Under the pieces are notes generated by a model, which saw only the letters and a program-made list of their open reading frames with translations, ran no database searches and was not told where the DNA came from. Source: Desulfatiglandales bacterium (lineage in GTDB: Bacteria; Desulfobacterota; DSM-4660; Desulfatiglandales; Desulfatiglandaceae). From it: DNA of 64,000 bases. The first letter of the stretch is position 1; every line of letters begins with the position of its first letter. Positions 16,601 through 60,892 of the stretch are shown here, one piece after another. The stretch lies in assembly GCA_963662465.1 (NCBI GenBank), contig OY759599.1, forward strand, positions 5,536,001-5,600,000, given 5' to 3'. The position numbers and the translations under genes were made by a program.

Positions 16601-16634
16601 TGTGACCGTATCTGTCAAAACCCCCTGTTAATAT
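16601..16634 (+). promoter_or_regulatory. WYL-box promoter copy 1
   Basis: TGTGAC-CGTATCT-GTCAAA, then TGt-TAATAT at 16629-16634. Confidence 0.75.
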
Positions 16635-16695
16635 ACCTGCCGGAAGAAGGTTTTTCACCGGCTGAATTATCCCGAACAGCAGGAATCTCACGAAG

Positions 16696-17343
16696 TATGA
16701 CAGTCCCCAATTCCATAGCAAAGAAAGAATGATGTCATCCAATCTTCGCGCCATGAAATCCGAACAGGTCAATTATTCCATCAGATCTTCGGGGGAATTC
16801 CGATCTGACCAGAGCGCTATATGGGATGGCATCGCTGAAAAAGCGACCAGGATGAGCGCTTCGTCTCCCACCGGCGCCATGGCGGCCATTTATGACAAAG
16901 AGAGACCTTCCATAGACGAGTATGTTCAACCATTCCACCTGATCGACTCTCAGATCGGTGCTGTTTTCATGATAAACGGCAAGGTTGCCGGTACGGATGC
17001 CTTCGGTAAACCGGGAACCTTTTCAAAGGTTTTCAAGAAGCTCCTTGAAAGCTACGCTCTCGATGCCATCGACTGGTATGATCCGCACCAGGAACAAAAA
17101 GCACTCAAAAGTGAAGTCACCAAATTCCAGAAAGCGGTACTTGCATCCCATGTTGAAAGTGGCCCGTCTGTTGGGCTAGGCGTTGACTTTCAGCTTGAAT
17201 CAAAGAAGGTCACCGGTTTCGCATTGGCACTTGCTGATCAGGTTTTACATATCTCCATTTTCGAAAGGACGAATGAAGGAAGAGGAAAAAATCAGGAATC
17301 TCGAATGAGACGTTTTTCGGACAGACGAAGAAACAGGGTATGA
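16696..17343 (+). pseudogene. 5'-deleted ARPP-1 (DUF6569) paralogue
   Basis: Homologous to 21642-22292. The 452 bp equivalent to 21193-21644 (RBS and N-terminal third) is missing, joined at a TAT microhomology. Confidence 0.88.
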
Positions 17344-17592
17344 GGAGATGCTTCCTCGTCAACCGCTTCGCTTTCTTTTGGCCGATGACCCGGGTGCCGG
17401 CAAAACCATCATGGCGGGGCTCTTGATCAAGGAGCTCATGGTTAGAGGTGATTTGGCCCGCTGTCTGATTGTATGTCCCGGAAACTTAGCCGAGCAATGG
17501 CAGGATGAACTCTACCGCCGTCTGCAACTCCGATTCAAAATCCTTACAAAAGATATGCTGGAAACCTCGGTTACGGGGAACGCTTTTCAGGA
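17342..17592 (+). pseudogene. SNF2-family helicase fragment (DUF499/DUF1156-operon type)
   Basis: [30 protein letters not shown]...[16 protein letters not shown]; motifs I/Ia only. Confidence 0.85.
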
Positions 17593-17925
17593 AACTTACT
17601 TGGGCTTTCCACACAGATGCCCATGAAGATTGTTTATCTCACCGATGGTCGATCCCGTACGGTGGAAATTGGAAAAAAGCAGATCATCCTGAAGCAGACC
17701 ACGCCGCGAAATATGGCAACGGCAGGCAAAATAAGCGGATTGCTTATTCAAGCCCTGAGACATTTGGGGCGACCCCATGTGGATGACGAGATTATTGCAC
17801 GGCTCAATCGACGGCTGAATGATGATGACAGAGAGCAGTTGCTGAAAGATGTCCGCTTTGCACCCGCCTGGATCGCTGACATCATGCGGCAGCTGGGCAA
17901 GGAAAAAGGAAACGAAACAGCGTGA
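17593..17925 (+). pseudogene. DUF6088/AbiEi-like antitoxin C-terminal fragment
   Basis: [22 protein letters not shown]...LIQALRHLG; no N-terminus. Confidence 0.75.
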
Positions 17926-18552
17926 ACAAATTTTTGTCTTTCTCCGAGGCGCGTAGGCGAACCGTCTGCGAGCAGGCCCAGAACAAACTTGGCCTGCCGC
18001 CGGCAACCATTGAAAAAGACTTCTGGGTCTGTTGGACGTTGAAAAAGTTGTTCACATTGCCGGAATGGGGTTCCAGACTCACGTTCAAGGGTGGAACTTC
18101 CCTTTCAAAAGGATGGGCACTGACTGTTTCCGCAATCACACATTACCATAAGAACGGTATCTCCCCATCGCACCTTTTGGGAAAAAGCCCTGTTGCTTCA
18201 TGAAGAGACTTTTCGACCACCGGAGAAGAAAAGAAAAGCGCGGATGGCGAGGCATTATTATGACTTATACCGTCTGATTAAAGCCGGCATCGGTGGTGAA
18301 GCCGCTGATGATCTCGAACTTTTTGAGCGGATTACCGCCCATCGCCAAGTCTATTTTCGCTTTATCTGGGTAGATTACAAAACCATGCACCCGGGTGATT
18401 TGAGGCTTGTACCGCCAGAAAAGGAGTTCGCACTCTGGAAATCGGATTATACGGCAATGAAAGACGAGATGCTTTTTGGAAAGCCGCCCGAATTTGAGGA
18501 GATGATTCAAACTGTCAAGGATTTTCAGGACGAGTTCAACGATATCATTTGA
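17922..18552 (+). pseudogene. AbiEii nucleotidyltransferase with central deletion
   Basis: N-part IEKDFWVCWTL...FKGGTSLSKGW, then in another frame SPHRTFWEKALLLHEE...RHYYDLY; the catalytic RxSEDxD region is absent. Confidence 0.85.
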
Positions 18553-18560
18553 TTGCTATC

Positions 18561-18785
18561 GACTTCCATTATGAACAAATGATTTTGGGACTTATAGAGG
18601 AATTTGGGCATGTGAAGCGGAAAGATGTGGATTAATTGCTGCTGGATAAACTGCCTGATGTGGTTACCCCGAAACAGAAAGTTAACAAAATCGGAAACTT
18701 GTTAGGCAAGCTCAGGGAAAGCGGAGCAATTGTCAACTCAGGAAGTCGGACAGCGCCGTTTTGGGAAATGGCTAAGAAAGGGTAG
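18561..18785 (+). pseudogene. C-terminal HTH remnant of an AlbA/RecG-C-type ATP-binding regulator
   Basis: DFHYEQMILGLIEEFGHVKRKDVD*LLLDKLPDVVTPKQKVNKIGNLLGKLRESGAIVNSGSRTAPFW, with one internal TAA. Confidence 0.6.
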
Positions 18786-18789
18786 AATT

Positions 18790-18839
18790 TTTAAGAAAGA
18801 TTTAAGAAAGATTTAAGAAAGGTTTAAGAAAGGTTTAAG
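18790..18839. repeat. 11-bp tandem repeat TTTAAGAAAGR x4.5
   Basis: Units start at 18790, 18801, 18812, 18823 and (partial) 18834; no spacers. Confidence 0.9.
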
Positions 18840-18849
18840 TTTGAGAATG

Positions 18850-19120
18850 TATGAAACATCCAACCGCCTGATCAGTAATGAAATCCAGAGGGGGCCATGT
18901 AGCAGCCGACCTGGCGGCCAGGCTGGGTAACAAAGTCGAGACTGCCCGTGAACTTTGTTACCGCTTCCACACCCTCTGCAAGCGCAAGAAGCGTGCGGCC
19001 GAGGCCCTTTTATATAACGGTCTGTTACAGAGCTGGCCGGAGATTGTGTGGCTGGCAGGGGAGCTCAAGGATGTGGGGATGAAGCAGGGGACCTGTTTGA
19101 AAATTAGTAGCAATGGGTAA
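18850..19120 (+). pseudogene. DUF1156 DNA methylase C-terminal fragment
   Basis: AADLAARLG...ARELCYRFHTLCKRKKRAAEALLYNGLLQSWPEI resembles the DUF1156 tail (LAYRLYxxCERK...AxxYNxLxxxWPxI). Confidence 0.7.
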
Positions 19121-19206
19121 TGCTTAGCGAAACCCGACCAAATATATTTCCTTTTCTAAATAAATGAGTGCAAAAACCACTCAATTGCATGGTATAATCA
19201 CGCAAA

Positions 19207-19550
19207 ATGGACACATTAAGTGAAATATTGTCTTCCCGTTCACGGGCTGCGATCTTCAAACTCCTTTTCAGTGGTACGGAAAGGGAGCTTCACATTCGCG
19301 AGATTCAACGTCGCTCCAGTCTAAATGACAGCACCATCCGGCAGGAGCTGAAAAAACTCGTCCGGTTGGATCTGGTTAAAGGGAGAAAAGACAGCAATCG
19401 GATTTATTATCGGGCCAACAGGGATCATCCTCTCTATCCGGATATTAGAAATCTGGCGGTCAAAACAAGCGGGATCGCCCACGTTCTGCGAAATGCGATG
19501 GTGGATAGACGGGTCCATGCGGCATTTGTGTTTGGGTCCATCGCCACCGG
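19207..19550 (+). pseudogene. wHTH + minimal nucleotidyltransferase antitoxin, truncated
   Basis: ArsR-like HTH followed by [11 protein letters not shown], broken before the SDxD motif; upstream inverted repeat TGAGTG...CACTCA (19164-19183). Confidence 0.75.
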
Positions 19551-19856
19551 TGGGCGCACCAGCAGACATTTTCCAGTGACGACGCCGACCGGTCGCTGGA
19601 CTCCATGATGCGTCTACTTTCTGCTGTTTCCGCACCCCAGGCAGACGAGATAGGGAAGATGAAGCAGGAACTCAGGCGCTTGATTTTCGACGAGCAGATG
19701 CGCCATGAGAAACGAAAAACCGCTGTAACCGCCATTGAAAGCTCTGCCACGGGCCATCTTAAACCCTGGCGCGAGGTGGTCACCCCGCACAAGGATGTGG
19801 CCAGCGGCCGTTATCAGCGGGCCGAGTTCGCGGCCGACCTCTGGCAGGTACATCTT
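19548..19856 (+). pseudogene. Swt1-HEPN/DUF499 AAA ATPase internal fragment
   Basis: [20 protein letters not shown]...[31 protein letters not shown]. Confidence 0.85.
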
Positions 19857-19883
19857 TTGATATTGGGCAGATGTAATTTATTG

Positions 19884-20927
19884 TCAACCGCGCTGCAAGG
19901 GACGATCTTGTGTTACGCCGTAGGGTCGATTATCTTCGCCGACGATGGGAGCGCCATACCGGCTGACCATCTTTTCCGCTTCTGCAAGGATCTCTTCTCG
20001 CAGAGATTCTGGTTCAAGGACCTCAGCCTTTGATCCCCAGGTCATGATCCAGAATCTGATTTCTTCGGTCCCCGCAACTTCAGCTTCAAAGATGATGGAA
20101 CCATCATTCTGAAGGTGGATCTTCTGTGATTCGTGCCAGATCTTTTCTTTGATATAACCCGAAACATCCGGATGAAACCATACCTTTATATATACGGGCT
20201 CTCCTTGATACACCCCGAAGCTTGAACCCGTAAACTTCTCAAGGCTGAAATCCTCGGGGATTTCGAAGGTTTCTTTTGTTTGATGGAGCATCTTGATGCG
20301 GTCAAGGGCGAATATCCTGACTTCTTTTCTCGTGTGGCATAAACCGATCAGATAAAAAGTCCCGTTGAAAAACCAGATCCGGTAGGGGTCCACCCGGCGC
20401 CGGGACTCTTTCCTCCGGCTCATCGTGTAATAGACAATTTCGATGGATTTCCGATTGACGGCGGCATCGTTGACCCGGTTCAAAATCCCCTTGAATTTGC
20501 CGTATTCCTTATATGGCTTTACGCCCAGGTGAAGGGTCTGCTCCACATTTTTCAGATATTTAATGGATTCCTTGGGCAGGGTCGTCTTGACCTTCTGAAA
20601 AAGCGACTCCAATGAGTCATAAAATGCGGTATCTTTGAAGACTTTGAGCATGTCCCTTCCGAAATAAAGGGCCATCAACTCGGTGAGGTTGAACGGAACA
20701 GGGATCTGGTGTTTCACCGTATCCAGCAGGGACCAGAGGTTTTTGCCCTCCACTTTTTCGGTGTAGATGGGAAAGCCGGCTACCTGCAGCGCTTCAAGGT
20801 CCCGATAAAGGGTCCGGGGATGGCATTCCAAATCCGTGGCCAGTTCAGCAGCCGATTTTCCCATTTTGGATGAAACCAGAATCTGAATGATCTGCCACTG
20901 TCTGCCTAACTGATCGCCCCTGGCCAT
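19884..20927 (-). CDS. HTH-WYL-WCX transcriptional regulator (PafB/PafC/DriD-like)
   Basis: [26 protein letters not shown] core RRVDPYRIW...FYLIGLC...[11 protein letters not shown] tail [18 protein letters not shown]. Confidence 0.93.
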
Positions 20928-21094
20928 GGATATCCTCCCTGAAATCCCTAATCTCTGGTTGGTGTCTGGAGAACATTTTTTAAAAGACTGAAAGATGTTT
21001 AAACAAAAAATACCGATTTTATCAACAAAATTAGCAATCTCATTACATTGAGTTTATGAAAAAAAACAAAATTTATTAAAAAAGATTCTCCAGT

Positions 21095-21128
21095 TGTGAC
21101 CGGATGTGTCAAAACCCTCTGCTAATAT
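21095..21128 (+). promoter_or_regulatory. WYL-box promoter copy 2
   Basis: TGTGAC-CGGATGT-GTCAAA, then TGc-TAATAT at 21123-21128; lies in the divergent region between the WYL regulator and ARPP-1. Confidence 0.8.
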
Positions 21129-21293
21129 ACCTGCCGGAAGAAGGTTTTTCACCGGCTGAATTATCCCGAACAGCAGGAATTTTACGAAGTATACAACTTG
21201 AAAAGGAGCTATTTGAAGGCGGTGGCACCATTGAAGGTGCTGATTGATTATGAATCTGATGAATTTAAAAGTGCAGGAAAGGAGGCAAACCAC

Positions 21294-22292
21294 ATGGATA
21301 CCGTTATCAATAATTATCTGGAACAGCTGAAAGTCGGCCGTAAACAATCCTATAAAAACCTTGCCCTTTACCCATTACTCTCAACATACAGCCTGGATTT
21401 GGAATACCTGCTGCTGGACGAGGCCCTGGGCGAAAACCTGATCGAGATCGTTGAAAAGGACAGTGACGGTTCCGTACCCGAACTGAGGGTCATGAACAAA
21501 TCCCCAAGAATGATTCTCATTCTGGACGGTGAAGAACTTGTGGGGGCTAAACAGAACCGGATTGTCAACACCACCATCCTGGTTCAGGGAAATGCCACGA
21601 TTGTCATCCCCGTGAGTTGTGTTGAGCATGGCAGGTGGTCTTATGACAGTCCCCAATTCCATAGCAAAGAAAGAATGATGTCATCCAATCTTCGCGCCAT
21701 GAAATCCGAACAGGTCAATTATTCCATCAGATCTTCGGGGGAATTCCGATCTGACCAGAGCGCTATATGGGATGGCATCGCTGAAAAAGCGACCAGGATG
21801 AGCGCTTCGTCTCCCACCGGCGCCATGGCGGCCATTTATGACAAAGAGAGACCCACTATCGAGGAATATGTGAAATCCTATAGTCTGATTGATTCGCAGG
21901 TAGGAGCCATCTTCATAATCAATGGCAAAGTGGCAGGATGGGATGCCTTTGGGAAACCGGGAACCTTTTCAAAGGTTTTCAAGAAGCTCCTTGAAAGCTA
22001 TGCTCTCGATGCCATCGACTGGTATGAACCGGACAAGGAACACAAGGCTCTCAAAAGCGAGGTTACCAAATTCCAGAAAGCAGCCCTAGCAGCCAGCACT
22101 GAAGGGCGACCGTCTGTGGGGTTGGGAACAGACTTCCGTATGGAATCCAAAAAAGTCACCGGCTTTGCCTTGGCCCTTGATGATCAGCTTCTCCACATCT
22201 CAATTTTTGCCAGGCCGGACAGCCAAAGCCGAGATACAGCTGATTCAAAAATTGAGAGGTTTTCGAGAAGAAGACGGAATCGAAGAGCATAG
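21294..22292 (+). CDS. ARPP-1 family (DUF6569) protein
   Basis: EKDSDGSVPELRVMN...LILDGEELVGAKQNRIVNTTILV...IPVSCVEHGRW...DQSAIW; start set at ATG 21294 after a GGAGG RBS. Confidence 0.82.
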   Translation: MDTVINNYLEQLKVGRKQSYKNLALYPLLSTYSLDLEYLLLDEALGENLIEIVEKDSDGSVPELRVMNKSPRMILILDGEELVGAKQNRIVNTTILVQGNATIVIPVSCVEHGRWSYDSPQFHSKERMMSSNLRAMKSEQVNYSIRSSGEFRSDQSAIWDGIAEKATRMSASSPTGAMAAIYDKERPTIEEYVKSYSLIDSQVGAIFIINGKVAGWDAFGKPGTFSKVFKKLLESYALDAIDWYEPDKEHKALKSEVTKFQKAALAASTEGRPSVGLGTDFRMESKKVTGFALALDDQLLHISIFARPDSQSRDTADSKIERFSRRRRNRRA

Positions 22293-23594
22293 GGAAAATG
22301 GTTCAGCAAATAAGCACGGAATAAGAAAGCTGGATTCCAGAATCAATGGGAAAGTAGTCAACAAAAAGCCCGAAAATCGGTCTTTTTATCAGTTTTAAAT
22401 TGACATATACAGTAGCTGGGTGTAGGCAACAATATAAAGAATTCGTGAACCAAATTTCTTCTTTGATTCAATGAAAAAAAGAGGATTAAGGATGGTTTAT
22501 ATCGCGCCAAAAAACCCCGTTACTCTTGAACAGATGGAGAGCGGGGTTCTGTATTTTTGCCCCGCTATCCATCTGAAAGGTGTTTACCAATATGCATAAT
22601 GTTGAAAACACGTTTGCCCCAGGTGCAAGAATTGTCGTTCGAGATGCGGAATGGTTAATTCGCAGGGTGGACAGGACGTCTACCGGCGGGCAATCATTGA
22701 CCGTCGTGGGCATATCGGAACTGGTCAAAGATAAAGAGGCCATATTTCTGAATGAAATTGATAAGAATATTGAAATCCTCGATCCTGCTGAAACCAAGCT
22801 GATACCGGATACGTCCAGTTCTTATCAGGCCTCCCTGCTCTATATGGAAAGCCTGCTTCGACAAACGCCGCCGACCGATGAAAAATTGTATATCGGTCAC
22901 CGGGCCGCCATGGATAACGTCCCGTACCAGCTTGACCCGGCTATTCAGGCGTTGCAGCAACCCCGGCAGCGCATATTGATTGCCGATGCGGTCGGTCTTG
23001 GAAAGACCCTGGCCTGCGGTATTCTGGTAAGCGAGTTGATTCGTCGCGGAAAAGGTAAACGAATTCTGGTGCTGGCGGTCAAGAGCATGCTGACCCAGTT
23101 CCAGAAAGAGATGTGGGCACGGTTCACGATTCCTCTTGTCCGGCTTGATTCCGTCGGCATTCAGCGTGTCCGCAACCGCATCCCCACCAACCACAATCCC
23201 TTTTACTATTATGACAAATCGATCATCTCCATCGACACCCTGAAGCAGGATGCCGAGTATCGAACCTATCTGGAGAATGCCTATTGGGACATCATTGTCA
23301 TTGATGAAGCCCATAATGTGGCTGAGAGGGGGAAAGGGTCCTCTCAAAGGGCAAAACTTGCCAAGCTCCTTTCCGGTCGTTCAGATACCTTGATTATGCT
23401 GTCAGCCACGCCCCATGACGGCAAGGCCAGAAGTTTTGCCAGCCTCATGAACATGCTTGATCCCACCGCCATTGCAAATCCTGATGATTATGGACCGGAA
23501 GATATCAAGGGTCTCTTTATCCGCCGATTTAAAAAGGATATCCAGTCCCAGGTACAAAACGCTTTCAAAGAAAGAGAAATCAGTAAGGCTTATT

Positions 23595-25337
23595 GGCTCA
23601 TCGCGGATTAACGTGAAAAATCGATATTTCGAACCAAAGATGTCAGATGTCAAAAGCTCCGCGTATTCCTACACTCTGCGTGAGAATGCGCTTTGGACGC
23701 TCTGCGTCCACTGGGATAAGGCAATGAAGAGCTAATACAAGATGGCTACCGACGCAAGGCAGGACAGTTTCTCATTTGTATGAACCTTGATTGACTTGAT
23801 GACTTGATTTTTTATTCATGCTGCCGGCATCATCAAGGTTCAGGCGCTTACCTTGTTGACTTGATTTACTTAGGCGCTTGTTATTATGAGCTCTTTTAAA
23901 CTGTTGACTTTTTTGACTTATCGCGGAGTAACGCGAAAACCCGCGAATTGTGCGAGCGCCCGAAGCCTGAAGTTTGCAAAATTCCTGTAACCGTAAGCCG
24001 AGCGTATCATCGTCCTCAGTCCATTATTGAGCCCCTCGACAAAACCATTTGTGATTCGTTCGGTAAAATAATTGAGGATCTCCTTTCTCCAGTTTTTGAA
24101 TGTAGCAACAAATTTGAGCAGGTATTTGTTGCCTGTTCGTTTTGCTTTTAGAACCCATGCGTCCAAAAAACGGGCTGCTTTTTCTCTGCAATGGATTTTC
24201 TCGAATATGGTGCGGAATTCTTCTTTAAGCAGGTACAAGGCGCGAAGATCAGGGCATGTTTTCAGTATGTTATCCAGATGTTCCGTCTCCTTTGGTGACA
24301 GTTCAGCCCGATTGCGTACAAGTATCCAGCGGCTGCCTTTGAGTAGTTTTTTCATTTCATCAGAGCTTTCTTTCTGATATTTTGTGCGCAGCTGGGTCAG
24401 GCGCGTATTCAATTGTTTCATGACATGGAATCGGTCAACTACCACCTTCGCATGGGGCAGCTTGCTGCGGGCTGCTTGATCATAGGGCGCCCACATGTCA
24501 ATGGAAACAAAACGGATAGATTTTTTCTCCATAGGACTCAAGGCTTCTATCCAATTTTCCAGGGTTTTTTTCTCCCTGTCAGGCAGGATAGCGAGTATGC
24601 ATTTCCTATCAATATCAGAGATCACGAGTACGAATTGCTTGTGACGCTTTTTGATGGAAAGCTCATCAATTCCTAAGCCCCTGACAGGATAGGTGGCCGT
24701 AGATATCCGTTTCATTGCCGCCCAAAAGTTGAAGATATCTTTTACTGTAGAGTGGCTTAGCCCTTCATGAACTGCAACAGCCTTGCGGGTGCTTGTAAGA
24801 CAGGCCTGATAAATATGCTGTTCGAAGGTTATGGATTGCCTGCGGTGGGAATCTACGAAGGGCAATTCTTCTACAAAAGTCCGACCACAATCTTCGCATT
24901 TGAAACGGCGAGAAAGAAAATGTAGGACAGTCTTTTTGCCCCACACATCCAAATGACGAATAGATCGAGTTTCTTCTTGATGAATTTTCGTTGAAAGTGA
25001 GCCGCAATGTGGACACAAGGCAACCTCCTCGCGATGGGTACACCAAAGATGCAGAACTTCGTGTTCTCCTTCGCGACGAAGTGCAAACATCTTTACCCCG
25101 ATGCTTGCAATGCCCAACAATTCGGTCAGAGTTTCATCCGCAACTTCTTTGAATTCTTGCAGGGTAATTCGCTTCACGGACTTCGCAGCATCCTTTATAT
25201 AGGATGTAAAACGGGGTAGCAGTTTCATGGAAAATCCTCCTAATGAGCTTTTTCCATCCTATTTATACCTATTGGGGGAGAAAGTTCTCAAAAAAATGAC
25301 AGGCGAAACATTTTTTCACGTTAATCCGCGTTGAGCC
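23595..25337 (-). mobile_element. Complete ISL3-family insertion sequence (1743 bp)
   Basis: Terminal IRs GGCTCATCGCGGATTAACGTGAAAAA / TTTTTCACGTTAATCCGCGTTGAGCC; 8-bp TSD GGCTTATT at 23587-23594 and 25338-25345. Confidence 0.96.
23918..25228 (-). CDS. ISL3 family transposase
   Basis: Zn finger CPHCG...CEDCG, LGIDE, SIDMW, VDRFHV, TNGFVEGLN...AYGYRNF. Confidence 0.95.
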   Translation of the reverse strand: MKLLPRFTSYIKDAAKSVKRITLQEFKEVADETLTELLGIASIGVKMFALRREGEHEVLHLWCTHREEVALCPHCGSLSTKIHQEETRSIRHLDVWGKKTVLHFLSRRFKCEDCGRTFVEELPFVDSHRRQSITFEQHIYQACLTSTRKAVAVHEGLSHSTVKDIFNFWAAMKRISTATYPVRGLGIDELSIKKRHKQFVLVISDIDRKCILAILPDREKKTLENWIEALSPMEKKSIRFVSIDMWAPYDQAARSKLPHAKVVVDRFHVMKQLNTRLTQLRTKYQKESSDEMKKLLKGSRWILVRNRAELSPKETEHLDNILKTCPDLRALYLLKEEFRTIFEKIHCREKAARFLDAWVLKAKRTGNKYLLKFVATFKNWRKEILNYFTERITNGFVEGLNNGLRTMIRSAYGYRNFANFRLRALAQFAGFRVTPR

Positions 25338-27181
25338 GGCTTATTGTGAAGCCACCCATGCCGAAGAGATGGCATTCGATGTTTTTGTGGATTTGAAGTT
25401 TGAGAGGCTGGACCAGAGAAGCGGCGCCGGGCAGCTTTTTAAGACAACGCTTGAAAAAGCATTGTTTTCAAGTCCGGCCGCCTGTTTAATGACCATCAAG
25501 AACAGGATCAATCGGCTTCAAAAAGATGATGATCCTGATGCTGAAAAGGATATTGCCCGACTTGAAGAACTGGCGGATCAAGTGGAACAGATCACTCCTG
25601 AACAGTTTTCCAAATACCAGAAACTGCTTTCGGTTGTTCGGGATCAAAATCACGGCTATGGATGGACCGGCAAAGACAAAAAGGACAGGCTTGTCATTTT
25701 CACGGAACGGATTGAAACTCTGCATTTCCTGCATGAGCATTTAAAAAGGGATCTCAAGCTCAAGGACAAAGAGGTGGAGATCCTGCACGGCTCCATGCCG
25801 GATGTGGACCAGCAACGGATTGTTGAGGATTTCGGCAAAGAGGAAGCCCCGGTTCGCCTTCTGATCGCCTCCGATGTGGCCTCCGAGGGCATTAACCTTC
25901 ATTATCTAAGCCACAGGCTTATCCATTTTGATATCCCCTGGTCCCTCATGGTCTTTCAACAGAGAAACGGCAGGATCGACCGATACGGCCAGGAACATAC
26001 TCCCTACATTTTTTATCTGGTCAGCCAGAGCCATAACCCAAAGATCAAGGGAGACATGCGAATTCTTGAACTGCTGATCCGAAAGGATGAAGAGGCGGTC
26101 AAGAATATTGGTGATCCTTCTGCGCTGATGGGGGTCTATGATATCGATGCGGAAGAAAAAATCACCGCGGATGCCATTGAATCCGGGAAAAGTGACAGTG
26201 AGTTTGAACAGGATTTGATGGAGAAGGCCAAAGAGACCTTTGATCCCCTTGCATTACTACTGGGCGGAGCGACATCTCCCAAAGTAAAAGAGGCCGAAAC
26301 CAAAACCAGGGATCTGCCCTCTCTTTATCCGGATGACTACCATTATCTGAAAGAGGCAATCATGTTTCTGAAGCAAACCCAAAAGCTTCAGACTGATTTT
26401 CCTGCCAATGAACAGCAAATCATTATTACAGCCAACAAAGATCTCAAACACCGGCTCAAATATGTTTTCCCCCGGGAAGTCTGGCCGGATGACGATACCT
26501 TCGTTCTTTCCGCCGACCGCCAGGTGATCCAGGATGAAATAAAACGCAGTCGCAAGGATGAAAACGCCTGGCCCCGTATTCATTATCTATGGCCGCACAA
26601 CCCGGTGCTGGAATGGATTAACGACAAGGTTGTCTCAGGTTTCGGCAGGCACGAGGCCCCTGTATTAACCCTTTCGGATAAACTTGGAACAGGAGAGACG
26701 GTCTTTATCCTCTCCGGACTCATCCCGAACAGAAAAAGCCACCCGCTGGTTCAACGCTGGTTCGGCGTGACTTTTAAAGATACTGCCTTTCAACAAATCG
26801 AAACGTTCGAGAAATTGCTTGCCCGAACTGGTTTAGGAAAAACTAAAATTCCAAACCGGACCGAAAACATTGACATTGAAGCGCTTCAAGAGCTTTTGCC
26901 AAAGGCTGTCCAGCAGGCCAGGGATTATATGAGCGAGGAACGGAAAGCCTTTGAAGAAATCATTAACAAAAAACTCAACGAGCAGCTTCGCGCACTTGAA
27001 CGTTTGAAGGGGAAGCAGTACCGGCAACTTGAATTGTTCTACACGGATCAGCGGCAGTTGAGCAAAAAGGAACAGCACAGGCGAGAGATTGATCGCAAAT
27101 TTGATGAATTTATCGAATGGGTCGAAGACACCATGACCACTGAGAATAATCCCTTTATTCAGGTTGTCTCTGTTCTGTTTG

Positions 27182-27720
27182 GGTAACCACGAAATACACG
27201 AAAAACACGAAAAAGGCAAAATGGATATTGTTTACAAGAATGAGAGTTATTTGATTATCGGGGCCTGCTTTGAAGTTTACAAAGAAAAGGGATGTGGGTT
27301 TCTTGAATCTGTTTATCAGGAGTGCCTTGAAATTGAATTGGGGTTACAAAAGATACCGTTTGTACCACAAAAAATGTTGAAGATTGAATACAAAGGAATC
27401 CCACTTAAGAGCCGTTATGTTCCTGATTTTGTTTGCTTCGACAAAATCATTTTAGAAATCAAAGCCGTGACCGCCCTGGCGGGTGAACATAAGGCGCAAG
27501 TTCATAATTATCTGAAAGCAACGGGGCATAAACTCGGCTTGTTGGTCAACTTTGGGCATTACCCAAAACTGGAATATCACCGCATTGTGAAATAGATGGG
27601 AACGATGGTAACCACGAAATACACGAATTACACGAAAAGACAAAAAGGGTATTGCTTACAAGAATGAACCAACTCTGAAGCAACTCTTCCTTTTCGTGTT
27701 TTTCGTGTCTTTCGTGGTTA
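27182..27720. repeat. CACGAA-rich repeats flanking the GxxExxY gene
   Basis: About 60-bp imperfect direct repeat GGTAACCACGAAATACACGAA...TACAAGAATGA at 27182 and 27607; inverted copy TTTTCGTGTTTTTCGTGTCTTTCGTGGTTA at about 27691-27720. Confidence 0.85.
27221..27595 (+). CDS. GxxExxY family PD-(D/E)XK protein
   Basis: GFLESVY motif, DFVCFDKIILEIKA, QVHNYLKATG, GLLVNFG. Confidence 0.92.
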   Translation: MDIVYKNESYLIIGACFEVYKEKGCGFLESVYQECLEIELGLQKIPFVPQKMLKIEYKGIPLKSRYVPDFVCFDKIILEIKAVTALAGEHKAQVHNYLKATGHKLGLLVNFGHYPKLEYHRIVK

Positions 27721-27745
27721 AAATATTGTAGCTGGAGAGCAGTAT

Positions 27746-30700
27746 ATGGCATTTGATATCACCGGCATCACCAACGAAAATGAATTCTACACCCATCATT
27801 ATCTTTCCGCCATTCTTGAAAATGATCTGAGAGACCTGTTCAAGGAATGGAACCGGAAAGCAGATGAAGAAGATATCCCGCAGCCATACAAGAACATACG
27901 CAGCTTGCGAAAAGAATATTTTGCTCTGCAGGATGCTCTGCAAAGGGAACGTAACATTGAAGACAGATTGGCATTACAGAGGGATTTCCAGGCGCAGCTA
28001 CTTTCGGCCCTTGGTTATGAACCATATTTCACGCTCGTCCTGTTGGATGACGGCGTCAGCATACCGTTGATTGGGGGCATCAATAAACCTGACGGTTCTC
28101 CCGAGTTGTGGATTCTTGAAGCTGCCGACGTGTTTGGGGAAGAACACGACCCTCTGGAAATGCAGCTATTAAAAGAGCAATATCCTGAGGACAGTGAAAT
28201 TCAGAAAATCCTGGATATTCCCCTGGAAGAGATCATCACCCGTCGGATATTTGGGCATTCCGAACCGCCTCGCTGGATAATCCTGCTCAACAGTACCCAG
28301 TTGTTGCTTCTGGACCGCACCAAGTGGCATGAAAAGAGGCTTTTGCGCTTTAATATCCGTGAAATTTTAGACCGGCGCGAGACCACCACCCTTCAGGCCA
28401 TGGCCGCCTTACTGCACCGGGATTCAATCTGTCCCAAAGACGGCATGCCCCTTCTGGACACCCTGGATGAGAACTCCCACAAACATGCTTTCGCGGTTTC
28501 CGAGGATCTGAAATATTCACTCAGAAAGGCCATAGAGCTTCTGGGGAATGAGGCGGTCTGGTTTCTCCGTGAAAAAGCCCACGAAAAAATCTATGGCCGG
28601 GACATGGCCGGGCAGCTCACCCGGGAATGCCTTCGTTATATGTACCGAATGCTCTTCCTTTTCTATATCGAAGCAAGGCCTGAGCTTGAATATCTCCCGG
28701 ACAAAAAATCAAAAGAGTACCACAAAGGATACAGCCTTGAGTCATTGCGTGAACTGGAGATGGTCCAACTTACCACGGATGAGTCAAAAAATGGCTTCTA
28801 TTTCCATGAGTCCATTAGTCTTCTGTTTGACCTTCTCTATAACGGTTTTCAGCCGGAGCAGGCGGATATGTTCGGCGTTCCGGATCATCATACTTTCCGC
28901 ATCGCACCGCTCAGGAGCCACCTGTTTGATCCCAAACAGACGCCACTGCTGAACAGAGTTAAACTCCGTAATTTTGTGATGCAGGAAATTATCGAGTTGA
29001 TGTCCCTTTCGAGACCCAAAAAAGGGAAGAAAAACCGGCGTGGACGCATCTCCTATGCCCAATTAGGGATCAACCAGTTGGGTGCAGTGTATGAAGCACT
29101 TCTTTCCTACCAGGGTTTTTTTGCTGAAACAGACCTTTACGAAGTCAAGAAGGCCGGGGAAAAGCACAATGTGCTCGAAACCGCCTACTTTGTGAAACCC
29201 GAGGATATCGAACAGTATACGGAGGATGAGCGGGTTTTTAATGATGATGGCACATTGGTGAAATACGAGAAAGGCACATTCATCTATCGCCTGGCCGGCC
29301 GGGACCGTGAAAAGTCGGCATCCTATTACACTCCCGAAGTGCTGACCCAGTGTCTTGTAAAATATGCGCTGAAAGAACTCCTCAAGGACAAAACCGCCGA
29401 TGAAATCCTTGAGTTGACGGTCTGTGAGCCCGCCATGGGGAGCGCCGCGTTTTTGAATGAAGCCGTCAATCAGCTGGCCAAGGCTTACCTGGATCGAAAG
29501 CAGAAAGAACTGGATCAGACCATCTCCCATGATGCTTACCCAAAAGAATTGCAGAAGGTGAAGATGTATATTGCCGACCGCAATGTTCACGGGGTGGATT
29601 TGAACCCGGTGGCCGTCGAACTGGCGGAAGTCTCTTTGTGGCTCAATACCATTTATGAAGGGGGATTTGTGCCTTGGTTCGGCATGCAGTTGGTCTGTGG
29701 TAATTCGCTGATTGGCGCCAGGCGGCAGGTGTTTCATGAAAACCTGCTCAAAAAGCAAAAAAAGACCGATCCCCTCTGGCTGGACGAGGTGCCGGAACGG
29801 GTGATGCCGGGTCAGAACCGGGAAAATGATACCGTGTACCACTTCCTGCTGCCGGATAAAGGTATGGCGGATTACAAGGATAAAGTCATCAAACAGATGG
29901 CAGTGGATGAAATCAAAACTATTAATGAATGGCGCAAGGAATTTACAAAGCCTTTTTCTAAAACTGAGATCTACCAGCTCAAAAAATTATCCGATGCTGT
30001 GGACAAACTTTGGCAGCGAAATGCAGAAATGCAACGGGATATTGATAACCGAACGACCGATCCGCTCCTTGTTTTCGGCCAGAAAGACCCTAAGCATAAA
30101 TGGCAGCCAACGACCACCGAATTCAAAGACCGAATTTTTCAGCAGGAAATGTTCTCCAAAAACGTGCGGAATTCGAGTCCATACAGACGGCTGAAACTGG
30201 TGATGGATTATTGGTGTGCTTTTTATTTTTGGCCAATTGAAAGGGCGGACTTACTGCCCAGCCGTGCTGAGTTTCTTTTTGATCTTACACTTGTTCTCGA
30301 TGGCAATCTTTTTGATGCGGATATTGATGAGAAGGGCCAGCAGCTTCTTTTCCCTGATACAAGGCCTTGAAAACAGATGTCTCTCAAAATGCTTGATGAG
30401 CTTGGATACGTGAATGTGGATAAGCTCTGCGAAAAAAACCAACGTTTAGGTTTGGTAAAGGAATTGGCCGAAAGATACCGGTATCTGCATTGGGAGCTTG
30501 ATTTCGCTGATTTATTTAGAAGAAAGGGCGGGTTTGATTTGGTATTGGGGAATCCTCCGTGGATTAAGGTGGCGTGGCGGGAAGGTGGAGTGTTGGCGGA
30601 TGCGGAACCGCAGTTCGTAATCAGAAAATACTCCGCCTCGAAGTTAAAGGAACTTCGGGAGGAGACCTTGGAGCGGATGAATTTAAGGAAACTTTATTTT

Positions 30701-32425
30701 AGCGAGTTTGAAGAGGCTGAAGGGACGCAGCATTTCTTGAATACCTACCAAAACTACCCTTTGCTCAAAGGAGTACAAACAAACCTTTACAAATGTTTTA
30801 TCACAAAGAACTGGGAAATATCATCATTTTCGGGGATAGTAGGAATATTTCATCAACCAGGATGTTTTGATGATCCAAAGGGTGGACATCTTCGCTCAGC
30901 ATTCGTCCAGCGATTGAACCTGCTTGCAAGGTTTAGAAATGAATTTCTCCTCTTCACAGCGATAAAACCAGAGCGTCTTTATTGTTTCACCATATCGTTT
31001 GGCCAAATTCAGGACAATGTTAATTTTAAAGTCATATCGAACCTATACCATCCAGTTACACTTGACAAGTCTTGGAGCCATGATGGTCAAGGTCCCATCC
31101 CTTTGGTAAAAACAGCAGAAGGGAAATGGATTCTTTCGGGACATAGGTCACGTATCATTGAAGTCGATGCAGGACTCCTTAGCTTGTTTTCAAAGCTTTA
31201 TGATTCAGCGAACTCATCATTTTTTGAGGCACGTCTTCCTGTGATACACTCTAGGGAGATATTATCTGTTCTAAAGAAATTTGCTGATGTGCCCCTACGT
31301 CTTCGTGATATACAAGGCAAGTATTTCTCTACAGTATGCTTTGATGAAACCTACGGTCAAAGAGATGGCACTATCAAGCGTGAAACTCGTTTTCCGAAAG
31401 ATCCTTCTGGATGGGTAGTTTCCGGTCCCCACTTCTATGTAGGAAACCCACTTTATAAAACGCCACGGGAAAAATGTCGTCTTAATACAGACTACGATGT
31501 GATCGATTTGACTCAAATTCCAGAAGAATACCTCCCTCGCACAAATTACATCCCAGGTTGTTCCCTTTCAGAATACGAACGTAGAATCCCCCGTTGGAAT
31601 GGTAAGTTAACTTCGGATGATTATCGGTTGGCATTCCGGGCTATGCTTGCTCCGACAGGCGAAAGAACTCTCATAAGTTGTTTAATACCTCCAAGAACGA
31701 CACATATTAACGGTGTTTATTCCTATCGGATGGAATCGAGGCTAGATTTGCTTACATTCGCAGCTCATGTATGTACTCTGCCATTCGATTTCTTCATCAA
31801 ATCTACTGGCAAGACGAATCTACACGAATTGCCCACATTGTTACCATTATTGCATACAGATTTTGATAAAATGCTATTTTCGCGTTTACTTCGCCTTAAC
31901 TGTCTCACTAAGCATTATGCAAGGTTATGGAACGAGCATTTTGACATTTCGTTTCAAGAAGACAGCTTCGCTAAAGAGGACCACCGGTTTCGTAGTTGGA
32001 AACATCTTACCCGAACTTGGCAAAGAACGTGTGCACTGAGAACCCCATGGGAACGCCGACAAGCTCTTGTAGAAATGGACGTTCTTTCCGCAATGGCACT
32101 TGGCATAACACTGCAAGAACTTAAGACGATATATAGGATTGAGTTTCGTGTAATGCGTCGCTACGAACACGACACTTATTACGATCAAAGAGGATTGATC
32201 GTCTTTACCTCAAACTCTAAAGGGCTTAATGGTATCGGACTCACTCGTAAGCAATTCGAGGAGATAAAATACATCGTTGCAGAAGAGAATCTTCCAAGTT
32301 GGGCTGTAGACCAAAATGGTATGACTTATTTACCCCCTTTTGACAATTGCGACCGTGAGAAGGATTACGAAATCGTTTGGCCAGAATTTGAGCGCCGCTT
32401 CAAAGAACAGGAAGGCAATTCATGA
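27746..32425 (+). pseudogene. Large N6-adenine DNA methyltransferase (Eco57I/DrmMI-like) split by one in-frame TGA
   Basis: SYYTPE and EPAMGSAAFL lie before the TGA at 30368-30370, GNPPW after it; both ORFs are in one frame (RP*KQMSLK). Confidence 0.88.
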
Positions 32426-32483
32426 AAAGACGATCAAATTTTCATATCCATTTCAAGTTTGTGGTAAGCTGCGTTGAATAAGG

Positions 32484-33062: not shown

Positions 33063-33073
33063 TGTTTGGTTTT

Positions 33074-33092: not shown

Positions 33093-33123
33093 TGAACGAA
33101 GGACTGGAAGGGAGCGGAGGAAA

Positions 33124-33558: not shown

Positions 33559-33588
33559 GACCATCCCATAGGCTGCCACGCACCGTCC

Positions 33589-44623: not shown

Positions 44624-44628
44624 ACGAA

Positions 44629-46779: not shown

Positions 46780-46809
46780 TTTTTGACTTGAATTGATTAG
46801 GAGGATTTC

Positions 46810-47052: not shown

Positions 47053-47062
47053 GGGAGAAGAA

Positions 47063-48269: not shown

Positions 48270-48280
48270 AGAGGCTGATT

Positions 48281-51538: not shown

Positions 51539-51608
51539 CAGGGAATGAGGCAGAATGCATGAAGTACCTGGCTGGAAATGACTTAAATTTGAGCTGAAAC
51601 TTTCAAGA

Positions 51609-53375: not shown

Positions 53376-53387
53376 GGGAGATGAATA

Positions 53388-53825: not shown

Positions 53826-54004
53826 GAGAAATTGAAAGTTATGATGACGATAAGTTATACAAAGTTATTACGGATAGCAAAACGCAATATGCCCCTGCTA
53901 TCGCAGAACAGATTATAAAAAGTGAAAAAGATTTACCTCCAAAGGCCATTGCGCTGTTTGACAAGATATCCGCTATTTTGAAAATAGAGGAGGCTACCGC
54001 ATGA
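53822..54004 (+). pseudogene. C-terminal remnant of an OLD/GajA-like nuclease
   Basis: Startless 60-codon frame LREIESYDDDKLYKVITDSKTQYAPAIAEQII...LPPKAIALFDKI ending in an ATGA overlap with the helicase. Confidence 0.55.
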
Positions 54005-55839: not shown

Positions 55840-55901
55840 AATGGTATTTTTCAAAAAACGCCAAATATGAAGAGTTAGGTTAAGAAAATGGGAGTTTCAG
55901 A

Positions 55902-57059: not shown

Positions 57060-57283
57060 AAAGGGATGGGTTTCGGCAACGTAGTAGGGTCGGACAATGG
57101 TAAATGTTTGAGCAACCGTTCCAAAAGTTCAAAAATATCCTCATTTTCGGGTTTAGCGGCTGATGCAGATGCACGTGAATTATACTTCGACCGCTATGTA
57201 AAGCTGAAGAACACACTGCCCACTGAAGGACTGATTTAGAGAATGCCATTGTTTCAACCGATGGCGCGAATAAGGGTTAAACA

Positions 57284-58474
57284 ATGAAAATTGAATACCT
57301 GCGAATTAAAAATTTCAAGGCATTCCGTGATATTGAAATGAAATATATCCCCGGTTTCTGCGTCGTTGTCGGTGCAAATGGCACAGGGAAATCCACGTTG
57401 TTTGATGTGTTCGGGTTCTTAAAAGACTGTTTGACTTACAACGTAACGCGTGCCTTTCAAAGCCGTGGCGGTTTTAAAGAAGTTGTTTCCCGAGGGCATG
57501 AAACTGAAAATATTGTCATCGAGCTGCAATTCCGAATGCTCATAACAAATGCTGAACGATTGGTTACCTATCATATCGAAATTGGAACCAAAAAAGGACG
57601 TTCGGTGGTGGAGAGGGAAATCCTCAGTTACAAGCGCGGCGCATTCGGCTCGCCATATCACTTTCTGGATTTCAGGTTTGGAGAAGGCTATGCCATTACC
57701 AACGAAGAAGATTTTGACAAGACGGAAGAAGAACTCCAACGGGAAACCCAGAAACTGGATTCGGAAAATGTTCTGGCAATTAAAGGGCTGGGACAATTTG
57801 AGCGGTTCAAAGCCGCCAGCGCTTTTCGGCAGTTGATCGAAAACTGGTATGTTTCCGATTTTCATATTAATATGGCGCGCGGCAGCAAGGACGCGGCAGG
57901 CCTTGATGACCATCTTTCCGTCAGCGGCGACAATCTTCAATTGGTGGCCAACAATCTCTTTGAGAATTACCCCGATGTTTTTGAGGGGATTATCAAAAGA
58001 ATGACCGAACGTGTGCCGGGGGTCACTGAAATCAAACCCATATCAAGCCCTGACGGCAGGCTGCTCCTGGGTTTCAAGGATGGTTCATTCAAGGACCCGT
58101 TTATCGACAGATATGTCAGTGACGGCACTATCAAGATGTTTGCTTATCTTGTGCTGCTCAATGACCCTGACCTCCATTCGCTGCTGTGTGTGGAGGAACC
58201 GGAAAACCAGTTGTACCCGAAACTGCTTTGGGAGCTGGCCGAAGAGTTCCGTGATTATGCTGTTCGCGGCGGCCAGGTTTTTGTTTCCACCCATTCCCCG
58301 GATTTTTTAAATGCCACGGAGCTGGACGAGGTTTTCTGGCTGGTCAAGCGGGATGGGTTTGCCGACATTGTACGGGCGCGGGACAACGAGCAGGTTGCGT
58401 CATTCATGGCCGATGGGGATCAAATGGGGTATCTTTGGGATCATGGTTTTTTTGAGGGAGCGGATCCGGAATGA
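57284..58474 (+). CDS. AAA_21/ABC ATPase
   Basis: GANGTGKS, VSDGT, VEEPENQLYP, STHSP. Confidence 0.88.
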   Translation: MKIEYLRIKNFKAFRDIEMKYIPGFCVVVGANGTGKSTLFDVFGFLKDCLTYNVTRAFQSRGGFKEVVSRGHETENIVIELQFRMLITNAERLVTYHIEIGTKKGRSVVEREILSYKRGAFGSPYHFLDFRFGEGYAITNEEDFDKTEEELQRETQKLDSENVLAIKGLGQFERFKAASAFRQLIENWYVSDFHINMARGSKDAAGLDDHLSVSGDNLQLVANNLFENYPDVFEGIIKRMTERVPGVTEIKPISSPDGRLLLGFKDGSFKDPFIDRYVSDGTIKMFAYLVLLNDPDLHSLLCVEEPENQLYPKLLWELAEEFRDYAVRGGQVFVSTHSPDFLNATELDEVFWLVKRDGFADIVRARDNEQVASFMADGDQMGYLWDHGFFEGADPE

Positions 58475-59031
58475 GAACCATTGTTTTCGCCCTTGAGGAA
58501 CCGTCCGCCTAAGAGATGTTAAAAGGCATTCTGCCAAAATTGCTGCCCAGTGATATGGTGCCGCGATTTATGGTGTTTAAAGGGAAAAGTGATCTCGAAA
58601 AGCGACTCCCGGTTTATCTTCGGAACTGGAAAATTCCGTGTATCAAATTCGTTGTTATCCGGGATCAGGATTCAGCCGACTGTCAAGAGGTGAAAAGCAA
58701 ACTTCTTGAACTGTGCAGGAATGCAGGAAAGCAGGAAACGCTGGTTCGAGTGGCCTGCCACGAACTCGAAAGCTTCTATCTCGGTGATTTGTCGGCTGTT
58801 GAAAACGGACTGGGATTAAAAGGGCTTGCCCGAAAACAAAACTCAAGGAAGTTTCGCGATCCCGATCATCTTGCCAATCCAGCTCAAGAACTCAAGCGGT
58901 TAACAAGAGAAAAATACCAGAAAGTGTCGGGATCGCGGGCCATTGGCCCGCATCTGATGCTTGAAGGAAATCGTTCAAAAAGTTTTCGGGCGCTCATTTC
59001 AGGTTTGAAGCGCCTGTTGGAAAATGAATAA
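58471..59031 (+). pseudogene. DUF4276 (TOPRIM-like) partner with a nonsense codon
   Basis: MRTIVFALEEPSA*EMLKGILP: in-frame TAA at 58510-58512 separates the EE motif from the rest (RDQD, ELESFYLGD). Confidence 0.82.
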
Positions 59032-59160
59032 TGTAAATCCAAAATCCTGGGACGCCTTAATTTACCTTTGGGAGTATGTATTCCTGAATTGAGTAAGGTG
59101 TTCCCGGACTTGCCTTTAGGGAAAGCAAGATCTTCAGAAGTCAATTCGAGAGGAGGCAGC

Positions 59161-60801
59161 ATGATGAGTACGCTATGGCCGAAAGAACTGCCTCGACATA
59201 CAGATTCAGGGGCTGAAAAGAAGGTTTATGAGGCCCTGAAAACAGGGCTTCCCAAAGGTTGGCATGCCTGGCATTCCTTGCGGTTGCGAAGCCGCATAAC
59301 GGGGCAACCCGATGAGACGGATTTTGTTATTGCGGATCCTTCCAAACCATCGCTTCTCATCCTGGAAATCAAGGGAGGGCTCATCGAAGTCTCAGACGGG
59401 CATTGGCTTCAAAATGGCCATGTCATGGACTCTCCTCCACTCAATCAAGCTTATGATTTTCGCTCCCTCCTGATTGACCGGTTTAGGGATCGAAAGATCA
59501 ATCCTCCCAAAATGGGCTGCGCAGTATGTTTTCCAGATGTGATGTTTGAAGAAGGTCCTTCAGGAGACGATCTCAGGGGCGTGGTTATTGGAGAAAATGA
59601 ACTTCCCTATCTCGAAGACATTCTGCCGACCGTTATGGCGCAGGCTGTGCCAAATCCATGGTCCACGGGCAATAATAGATGGCTCCACACTCTTCATGAA
59701 TTTTGGGGCGAAACGTGGGTCCCGGATATATGCCTGGGGAGCCGGGTCCAGTTGGATGAGGAAAAGCGCCTTCAACTGGACCACCAGCAGGTACATATTA
59801 TGGAAAGCCTGGAACAAAACGATCGTTTGCTCATTCAGGGATCCGCCGGCACCGGAAAAACGCTTTTGGCCATGAACACGGCGCAGCGGGAATCGGATGA
59901 AGGGAAGCGGGTCTTGCTGCTTTGTTTTACCGAAGCCCTGGCGGCTTTTTTAAGAGAGTGTCTGAAGGATTCAAAGGTCGAGGTGGGCGCAGTAAGGCAT
60001 TTTGCAAAACATCTTCTGGGGGAAAAAGCGCCGAGAGAATTGCTGGGGCAAACTTCCGACTATTGGGAAGAGGTGAGTTTGAGGGCAGCGATGGATGCTG
60101 TTCCTCCGGAAAAAGAGCTTTGGGAAACCGTTATTGTGGACGAAGGCCAGGATTTCAGTGGAAACGATTGGGAGCTGGCCCGGGAATGTGTCCACCCGCA
60201 GGGAAAGCTCTGGGTTTTTGCGGATCAGGAACAGGCTTTCTGGCCCGATCGGGGATTGAGCAACGAAGCGATGCAGGGATTCATGAAATACAATCTCAAG
60301 AAGCCCTACCGGTGCCATCCGGCCATTCAACATCTGGATGAATGCTATTCAGGAATTTGCAATCCAGATCATCTATTGCTTCAAAGAAGCGTCAAAGAAG
60401 GCGTTATTCGAATCATCACCAGCTCCGAGACACGTTTGACCAAACAAATAGGCAAGGAGATCCATCGTCTTTTGAGCGGTGGCCTCAAACCCGATGATAT
60501 TGTGGTGTTGTCTCTTCGGGGCAGAGGTTCCAAAGAAGGCATTACCCACATGAAAGAAATAGCCGGCCACCCAGTATTTCTTGCTACCGATCCAGCGGCC
60601 GGGGAAAACATCATTTGCGACACGTTCCTTCGCTTTAAGGGGCTGGAACGTCCGGCGGTTATTGTTACCGATTTTCGGCTGGTCTCGGATCTTTATGAGA
60701 AGCGGATGCATATTGCCGTATCCCGTGCGCTGAGCCTCCTTCGAATTGTGGGTTTGGAAAGTGAGATTCGAAAAGATGAGCGACTTGCGGGGTTGATTTG
60801 A
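59161..60801 (+). CDS. NERD nuclease + SF1 helicase fusion
   Basis: SGAEKKVY...ETDFVI...LEIKGG; GSAGTGKT, VDEGQD, RFKGLE, IAVSRA; AGGAGG RBS before ATG 59161. Confidence 0.88.
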   Translation: MMSTLWPKELPRHTDSGAEKKVYEALKTGLPKGWHAWHSLRLRSRITGQPDETDFVIADPSKPSLLILEIKGGLIEVSDGHWLQNGHVMDSPPLNQAYDFRSLLIDRFRDRKINPPKMGCAVCFPDVMFEEGPSGDDLRGVVIGENELPYLEDILPTVMAQAVPNPWSTGNNRWLHTLHEFWGETWVPDICLGSRVQLDEEKRLQLDHQQVHIMESLEQNDRLLIQGSAGTGKTLLAMNTAQRESDEGKRVLLLCFTEALAAFLRECLKDSKVEVGAVRHFAKHLLGEKAPRELLGQTSDYWEEVSLRAAMDAVPPEKELWETVIVDEGQDFSGNDWELARECVHPQGKLWVFADQEQAFWPDRGLSNEAMQGFMKYNLKKPYRCHPAIQHLDECYSGICNPDHLLLQRSVKEGVIRIITSSETRLTKQIGKEIHRLLSGGLKPDDIVVLSLRGRGSKEGITHMKEIAGHPVFLATDPAAGENIICDTFLRFKGLERPAVIVTDFRLVSDLYEKRMHIAVSRALSLLRIVGLESEIRKDERLAGLI

Positions 60802-60858
60802 CTTGTCCATTTTTTGAAATCAAAAAAGTTGGCGTTTACTTCAAAAAAAATTACAGCT

Positions 60859-60892
60859 TGTGACCGGATATGTCAAACACCTGTGTTATGGT
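60859..60892 (+). promoter_or_regulatory. WYL-box promoter copy 3
   Basis: TGTGAC-CGGATAT-GTCAAA, then TGt-TATGGT at 60887-60892; same 11-bp gap after GTCA, in otherwise unrelated sequence. Confidence 0.75.

Follow-up and report, generated by a model that had tools for sequence, protein, structure and literature searches.

A 64,000-nucleotide stretch of the genome of a Desulfatiglandales bacterium (contig OY759599.1, positions 5,536,001 to 5,600,000; hereafter the window) carries exact copies of the palindrome TGTGAC-N7-GTCAAA at positions 16601, 21095 and 60859, as described in the original prediction. This operator is part of a conserved promoter module with three elements, an A-tract, the core GAC-N7-GWC over the -35 position and an extended -10 motif. 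By analogy with characterized WYL regulators, the helix-turn-helix (HTH)-WYL-WCX protein encoded on the same genomic island probably binds the module as a homodimer and would activate scattered defence operons in response to a ligand.

An exact TGTGAC-N7-GTCAAA is expected by chance about 0.008 times per window and about once per 8.16-Mb genome. The genome of this bacterium (G000) contains five, and an extended -10 motif is located at the identical offset in all five. Within the window, the proposed geometry, a TAnnnT hexamer 11 bp after GTCA and preceded by TGn, was confirmed at all three sites (TAATAT, TAATAT and TATGGT). A good -35 element is missing, as had been claimed: hexamers at 16-18 bp spacing (e.g., CCGTAT and CCGGAT) are poor matches. 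The spacer of the palindrome is also conserved, giving the site consensus KTGACCGKATCTGWCAAA, and a further conserved A-tract is found approximately 15-18 bp upstream of the palindrome. Read in reverse, TGTCAA becomes TTGACA and could serve as the -35 element of a divergent promoter; this candidate was rejected, with a reverse TAnnnT at 15-17 bp present in none of 118 sites.

The motif had been called independently conserved because copy 3 lies in non-homologous DNA. Copy 3 is indeed embedded in unrelated DNA, but copies 1 and 2 are not independent of each other and stem from one duplication including the leader (87.6% over 137 bp) and the ARPP-1 gene (85% over 566 bp). Thus, the window contains two independent promoters, not three. 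Site 3 is duplicated 12.7 kb further on, beyond the window (G000:5609522). Right at the predicted transcription start, the leader shared by sites 1 and 2 begins with a small hairpin closed by CCGG (window positions 16640-16665 and 21134-21160).

The module is retained well beyond this genome. Searches with the operator-only pattern gave 273 matches in 90 of the 174 genomes of the order, compared to 14 matches of the reversed pattern; in a sample of 301 genomes drawn from across the phylum, 46 had matches. From the 273 matches, 143 distinct sites in 49 genomes were read. Although the -10 motif was not in the search pattern, TAnnnT was present at the exact offset in 94 of the 143 sites; other offsets gave 0-2 cases each, except -5 (25) and +5 (9), which reuse the conserved T. 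At the -35 position about one of six positions matches. The upstream A was found in 73-77% of the 118 sites with a -10 motif, at 15-18 bp upstream, corresponding to about -56 to -53 from the predicted start, and this A-tract may resemble an UP element. Where sites lie in unrelated flanks, only the A-tract, the operator and the -10 motif are kept. Back-to-back divergent operator pairs (G113:C1:3129721-3129810; G216, C23 and C44) suggest bidirectional regulated promoters. In genome G052, 11 of the 14 matches are copies of one variant and probably represent an unrelated repeat; the one that was read has no -10 motif. A viral scan returned three IMG/VR matches; L145, the only one inspected, belongs to a phage replication region that is unrelated.

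The occurrence of the operator was compared with that of the WYL gene family. We obtained 71 loci related to the window WYL protein, almost all titled Desulfobacterota or Deltaproteobacteria metagenome-assembled genomes (MAGs); 52 of them, with an intact 5' end and upstream DNA, were examined and 19 were left out. The enrichment anticipated upstream of WYL homologues was found: an operator (at most one mismatch, within 1.2 kb) is present in 37 of the 52 loci, and all 37 sites are oriented away from the WYL gene, while downstream control stretches contained a site in 2 of 45 cases. At positions -12, -11 and -7 of these 37 sites the bases T, A and T occur 36, 36 and 33 times. The alternative assignment of the motif to ARPP-1 was rejected: ARPP-1 is found near 19 of the 37 WYL-adjacent sites and was not found at the other 18, showing that the site follows the WYL gene. 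Distant WYL paralogues with different recognition helices have no site.

Comparison of whole genomes gave a similar picture. Sites are present in 41 of the 50 genomes having a close homologue (at least 55% identity) and in 49 of the 124 genomes without one. In other families, a full-length orthologue was found in 8 of 12 multi-site genomes versus 0 of 12 zero-site genomes, the latter being hand-picked from four of the same families and five of the orthologue loci repeating training loci. G004, a seven-contig genome of the same genus, has neither site nor WYL homologue. Genus g80 (G161, G163-G166) encodes close WYL homologues (65-70%) and has no exact site, possibly owing to an operator variant.

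The WYL protein has the predicted HTH-WYL-WCX architecture according to Pfam, and PDB, profile and Foldseek comparisons place it closest to the activators DriD and PafBC. The best single-sequence PDB match is DriD (E 4e-15). With a profile alignment of 34 homologue sequences (eight rows dropped), E-values were 3e-28 for PafBC (6sj9) and 3e-22 for DriD, compared to 2e-6 for CapW and 1e-5 for BrxR. In the structure model, with a predicted local distance difference test score (pLDDT) of 76 and a predicted template modelling score (pTM) of 0.59, helices 81-96, 103-115 and 119-131 form a three-helix bundle between the winged HTH (wHTH) and the WYL domain; the top Foldseek match is DriD 8tp8 and ranks 1-7 are all DriD. 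The base-reading residues R37 and R41 of DriD align to R38, which is invariant, and R42, conserved in at least 90% of the 34 homologues. DriD E40, the reader of the outer C, aligns to Y41, and the outer operator base is T here. Residues Y168, S172, R178, Y192 and R204 of the DriD pocket for single-stranded DNA (ssDNA) align to Y166, S170, R177, Y192 and R204, which are invariant or at least 90% conserved in the same homologues; W206 is changed to F. The genome contains a second, 5'-truncated copy of the WYL gene (92% at nucleotide level; G000:C1:7798415-7799235, L140) that has neither HTH nor site.

To define the regulon in the own genome, a matrix trained on other genomes only was used, with the reversed genome as control. 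Thirteen sites scored at least 21.8 bits, and no site in the reversed genome reached 20 bits. The -10 score is positive for each of the 13, and TAnnnT is present in 11. The original prediction of an island-wide regulon has to be widened, as these sites are distributed genome-wide and lie far outside the island. Sites are located directly before brxA of two complete bacteriophage exclusion (BREX) clusters (G000:2126559; 4219796 and 4220109), and one lies 2.2 kb before a third brxA-B-C, behind a DUF932 remnant; none of the BREX loci with sites has an adjacent WYL gene. Two of the remaining sites precede DUF4062-HTH genes, one precedes the gene of an unknown protein of 654 amino acids and for two no defence target is evident. 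The genome contains three or more separate BREX clusters (L133, L135, L136), which match different PADLOC subtypes.

Eight core repair genes were located (recA, uvrA, uvrB, gyrA, recN, radA, recJ and mutS; lexA, ssb, ruvB, dnaG, recG and dinB were not picked up by the signature scan and are excluded from the count), and none of the eight has a site, the best scores being below 0. In relatives, 0 of 5 recA loci have a site, and none above 11 bits was found at nine LexA-domain loci. A combined defence/repair regulon had been proposed; the defence part is borne out by ARPP-1, Cas3, BREX and restriction-modification (RM) genes, while the repair part is largely unsupported, since the eight repair genes and the five recA genes of relatives are without a site. 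Replacement of the SOS response was likewise rejected, as the core repair genes have no site. LexA was not found in the own genome by family search or by tblastn with the LexA of the same genus, and it is present in all five relatives tested.

In the related genomes, the Pfam scan covered 81 of 94 downstream open reading frames (ORFs) in one set and 88 of 119 plus 5 repeats in another. Counted by locus, the downstream families comprise ARPP-1 (13), Cas3 (10), Cas1 (1), BrxA/B (2), RM subunits (4), SNF2 or DEAD helicases (5) and IrrE-like peptidases (5). ADP-ribosylglycohydrolase, DUF4062, Fic, DUF499, DUF4007, Schlafen, RlaP and DNA polymerase III alpha were found in one or two cases each, and roughly half of the downstream ORFs have no family. 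The clearest repair-type target is a PHP-DNA polymerase III alpha gene behind a site with intact -10 motif (L221, G113:C1:3496200-3498053). The distribution of targets also bears on the least probable of the readings considered, in which the WYL-adjacent site alone is functional and all others are relics copied with mobile defence cargo, so that no coordinated regulon exists. Sites 1 and 2, like site 3 and its copy, are indeed plain duplications, site 1 stands before a truncated gene and the second WYL copy is truncated as well. Relics of this kind would hardly explain why sites in unrelated flanks keep just the three promoter elements, nor why they head non-homologous systems, namely three different BREX loci, Cas3 and RM.

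The preferred reading, activation by the island WYL protein, can be formulated in several steps, most of them by analogy with DriD. The G bases in both half-sites would be read by the recognition-helix residues R38 and R42. The WYL pocket would take up a nucleic-acid ligand, probably ssDNA arising from phage attack or damage, and the activated dimer would recruit sigma70 RNA polymerase to promoters without a -35 element. Transcription would run away from the WYL gene, and core repair genes would remain outside the regulon.

Several observations weigh against this reading. The operator pattern was refined on some of the same WYL loci in which it was then counted, the -10 motif not being part of the pattern, and all statistics ignore the relatedness of the genomes, so that significance is overstated. 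Nine of the 50 homologue-bearing genomes have no exact site. Conversely, among the 49 genomes that have sites and lack a close homologue, 17 have at least three sites, and gene fragments were detected in only about 13; most of the 49 are fragmented MAGs, yet G054 (one contig) and G155 (20 contigs) are also without fragments. About a dozen or more of the downstream ORFs encode unrelated enzymes or transporters, and some sites have no -10 motif. On the protein side, identity to DriD is about 22% and the pTM of the model is modest. R176 of the DriD pocket is lost, aligning to S175, and conservation of the residues contacting RNA polymerase in DriD (G18, A20, R120-R122, P125) is not evident: K21 stands at the position of A20, and at this level of identity the alignment has a gap where the basic R120-R122/P125 patch would be. 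The single RNA run available is a metatranscriptome (share 0.08) present as contigs only, from which starts and levels are not readable.

The genomes with sites and without the gene raise the question whether another factor of the core genome, a transcription factor or sigma factor, reads the sites and the WYL gene merely adjoins one of them. Family searches found no WYL domain in four of five such genomes tested, and G009, in which none was found, has up to eight sites. We nevertheless consider this very unlikely: the genomes in question are for the most part fragmented MAGs, about 13 of the 49 contain remnants of the gene, the patchy distribution of sites follows the WYL orthologue in other families, the motif fits the DriD/DdaA operator class, and no different regulator recurs near the sites.

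A second question is whether the WYL protein represses instead of activating, with a dimer blocking a promoter that is independent of a -35 element (extended -10 motif plus A-tract) until ssDNA releases it, as for BrxR and CapW. The two-gene neighbourhood of WYL and ARPP has been noted before (Iyer et al., 2022, PMC9503650), with WYL factors in such systems treated as negative regulators; the WYL-ARPP-1 pair at site 2 represents this neighbourhood, and the passages on it contain no operator. BREX is among the targets, and BrxR was proposed to repress via a site overlapping the -35 element (PMC9122589). TGn and the A-tract could support initiation without an activator, and the RNA polymerase contacts of DriD are not evidently conserved. 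Sequence and fold are, however, far closer to DriD and PafBC than to BrxR and CapW, including the three-helix bundle, and a repressor needs neither a spacing exact to the base pair nor an invariant orientation, both of which are seen here. Furthermore, loss of the -10 motif is more frequent in WYL-negative genomes, where 42 of 75 sites keep it, than in WYL-positive genomes (52 of 68); this fits decay after loss of the gene, without proving it. We therefore regard repression as unlikely.

Among known regulators, DriD of Caulobacter crescentus (8tp8, 9pfq) has the solved structure that comes closest to the activator proposed here. Both have the wHTH-three-helix bundle-WYL-WCX layout, a GAC-N7-GTC operator over the -35 position with near-identical spacer, a fixed -10 distance and a poor -35 element, and the base-reading arginines and most ssDNA-pocket residues are kept. 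In the 13-base core, site 1 and a DriD operator are identical except for one base (PMC9186387). The GAC-N7-GWC core is shared with the DriD operator CGAC-N7-GTCG, with T/A instead of C/G as outer bases, and the distance from GTC to the hexamer is 12 nt in both, the xAxxxT -10 motif of DriD being assigned here from promoter sequences printed in PMC13004042. DriD activates an operon divergent from its own gene (PMC9186387, PMC10853764, PMC13004042), which is the arrangement of site 2. Unlike DriD, the protein analyzed here has Tyr41 in place of Glu40, in line with the outer T, and its promoters have an additional TGn and upstream A-tract. Its targets are defence systems and not didA, recA, recJ, dnaG or bapE; the polymerase contacts are not evidently conserved, and the gene is mobile and often broken.

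The PafBC consensus given in the original prediction is TGTCGG-N10-TA-N3-T. Parallels to both DriD and PafBC had been drawn; the comparison with DriD, and with DdaA, is supported by the palindrome, which is of the homodimer type, but that with PafBC holds less well, as PafBC is a heterodimer with a non-palindromic site, while here a single gene and a palindromic site are found. The actinobacterial PafBC and SiwR nevertheless share the domain layout and activation at promoters without a -35 element (PMC11804915, PMC10693628), and SiwR, which uses R38/R42, controls an adjacent operon via a palindrome (PMC10693628). Defence operons, including BREX, are likewise the targets of the WYL regulators BrxR and CapW (PMC9122589; 7t8k, 7tb5), which have a site close to the -35 position. 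The similarity to them is much weaker, as seen in the profile E-values. BrxR is encoded at the head of its operon, whereas here a single gene seems to control many loci in trans.

DdaA of Moraxellaceae, which the original prediction omitted, is a published WYL activator of repair and defence genes (PMC12392091, PMC13010146). It shares the activator class, a site of the GWC-N7-GWC type (CGWCA-N5-TGWCG) and the substitution of the first WYL arginine. According to the same papers, DdaA activates RM and CRISPR-Cas and is said to control other anti-phage systems only rarely, and its site was bound in electrophoretic mobility shift assays by a homologue from the Desulfobacterota (Geoalkalibacter). 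DdaA, compared here by description only, is a global regulator of the DNA damage response that replaces SOS (recA, uvrA, ssb, gyrA/B); in contrast, recA and the core repair genes have no site here, 5/5 relatives keep LexA and BREX is a recurrent target. We found no description of this operator or of a WYL regulon in Desulfobacterota in a literature search that was incomplete and did not extend to supplements.

The features of the three window sites and the genes behind them are listed in Table 1. It had been proposed that the sites head three defence modules, one of which turned out to be a truncated duplicate: the ARPP-1 remnant behind site 1 lacks the first 116 codons and the ribosome-binding site. 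Behind site 2, the DrmD-like helicase gene is split by an ISL3 element (window 23592-25337), two near-identical copies of which are present elsewhere in the genome, and a single contig from run X1 joins across the insertion. The type IIG RM/DrmMI-like gene (27746-32425) is broken by an in-frame stop at 30368-30370; three letters at this place are absent from contigs of two public runs, and the stop may thus reflect strain variation or an error of the assembly.

Table 1. Promoter elements, regulator and downstream genes at the three window sites.
Feature	Position	Strand	Remarks
A-tract upstream of site 1	16585..16589	+	sequence
Operator copy 1	16601..16619	+	34.1 bits; duplicate of site 2 promoter
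Extended -10 of site 1, TGT TAATAT	16626..16634	+	sequence
5'-truncated ARPP-1 copy behind site 1	16696..17343	+	residues 117-309 match at 85%; followed by DUF6088 and AbiEii fragments
wHTH-linker-three-helix bundle-WYL-WCX regulator, 347 amino acids	19884..20927	-	predicted cognate activator; Pfam HTH_11, WYL, WCX
Conserved A-tract of site 2	21078..21083	+	putatively UP-element-like
Operator copy 2, primary site	21095..21113	+	27.0 bits; divergent from WYL gene, faces ARPP-1
Extended -10 of site 2, TGC TAATAT	21120..21128	+	sequence; predicted transcription start near 21135
ARPP-1 gene, 332 amino acids, first behind site 2	21294..22292	+	Pfam PF20208, E 3e-98; start follows AAGGAGG
DrmD-like SNF2 helicase, PD-(D/E)XK and type IIG RM/DrmMI-like genes	22580..32425	+	downstream of site 2; presumably co-transcribed
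A-tract upstream of site 3	60843..60851	+	sequence
Operator copy 3	60859..60877	+	flanking DNA unrelated to sites 1 and 2
Extended -10 of site 3, TGT TATGGT	60884..60892	+	sequence
Small acidic protein with two CxxC motifs, first gene behind site 3	60953..61270	+	no Pfam/PADLOC family
PD-(D/E)XK_7 fragment and DEDDh exonuclease-WYL fusion	61337..62907	+	behind site 3

Beyond the window, the genes behind site 3 continue with an RNase_H_2 nuclease and an AAA_12 helicase. The DEDDh exonuclease-WYL fusion is present in two copies (window 62068-62907; G000:5610048-5610857), each followed by the RNase_H_2 nuclease, and the AAA_12 helicase comes after the first unit; both units lie behind operator copies, with the acidic CxxC protein as first gene. 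The window also contains a dense defence block without its own site (36836-59031), which encodes a PtuA-like ATPase, a DruE-like helicase of 2116 amino acids, UvrD, SbcCD, a kinase-TPR-FHA protein, a GajB-like helicase and a HEC-01 pair.

Activation of anti-phage genes by a WYL regulator is a principle already published for DdaA (PMC12392091), which limits the surprise. New here are the operator, the three-part promoter and the genome-wide, nearly defence-only target set including BREX. Most descriptions of WYL regulators of defence concern local repressors (BrxR, CapW), and those of WYL activators concern regulators responding to DNA damage (DriD, PafBC, DdaA). It is possible, although we put this forward tentatively and as rather less than probable, that Desulfobacterota have a dedicated master switch of immunity, apart from SOS and repair, in the form of a mobile WYL activator encoded on islands. 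One plug-in promoter module would then place unrelated, distant systems (several BREX types, CRISPR-Cas3, RM, DISARM-like helicases and ADP-ribose reversal genes) under a single ssDNA sensor, and orphan promoters in genomes that no longer have the gene would mark dormant defences that are re-armed upon its re-acquisition. The exact operator, a predicted cognate protein and residue-level predictions are at hand. Many sites precede genes without a Pfam family, and the motif is a marker for candidate defence genes in Desulfobacterota. If confirmed, the island protein would represent an activator clade with an almost purely defensive, genome-spanning regulon that includes the activation of BREX.

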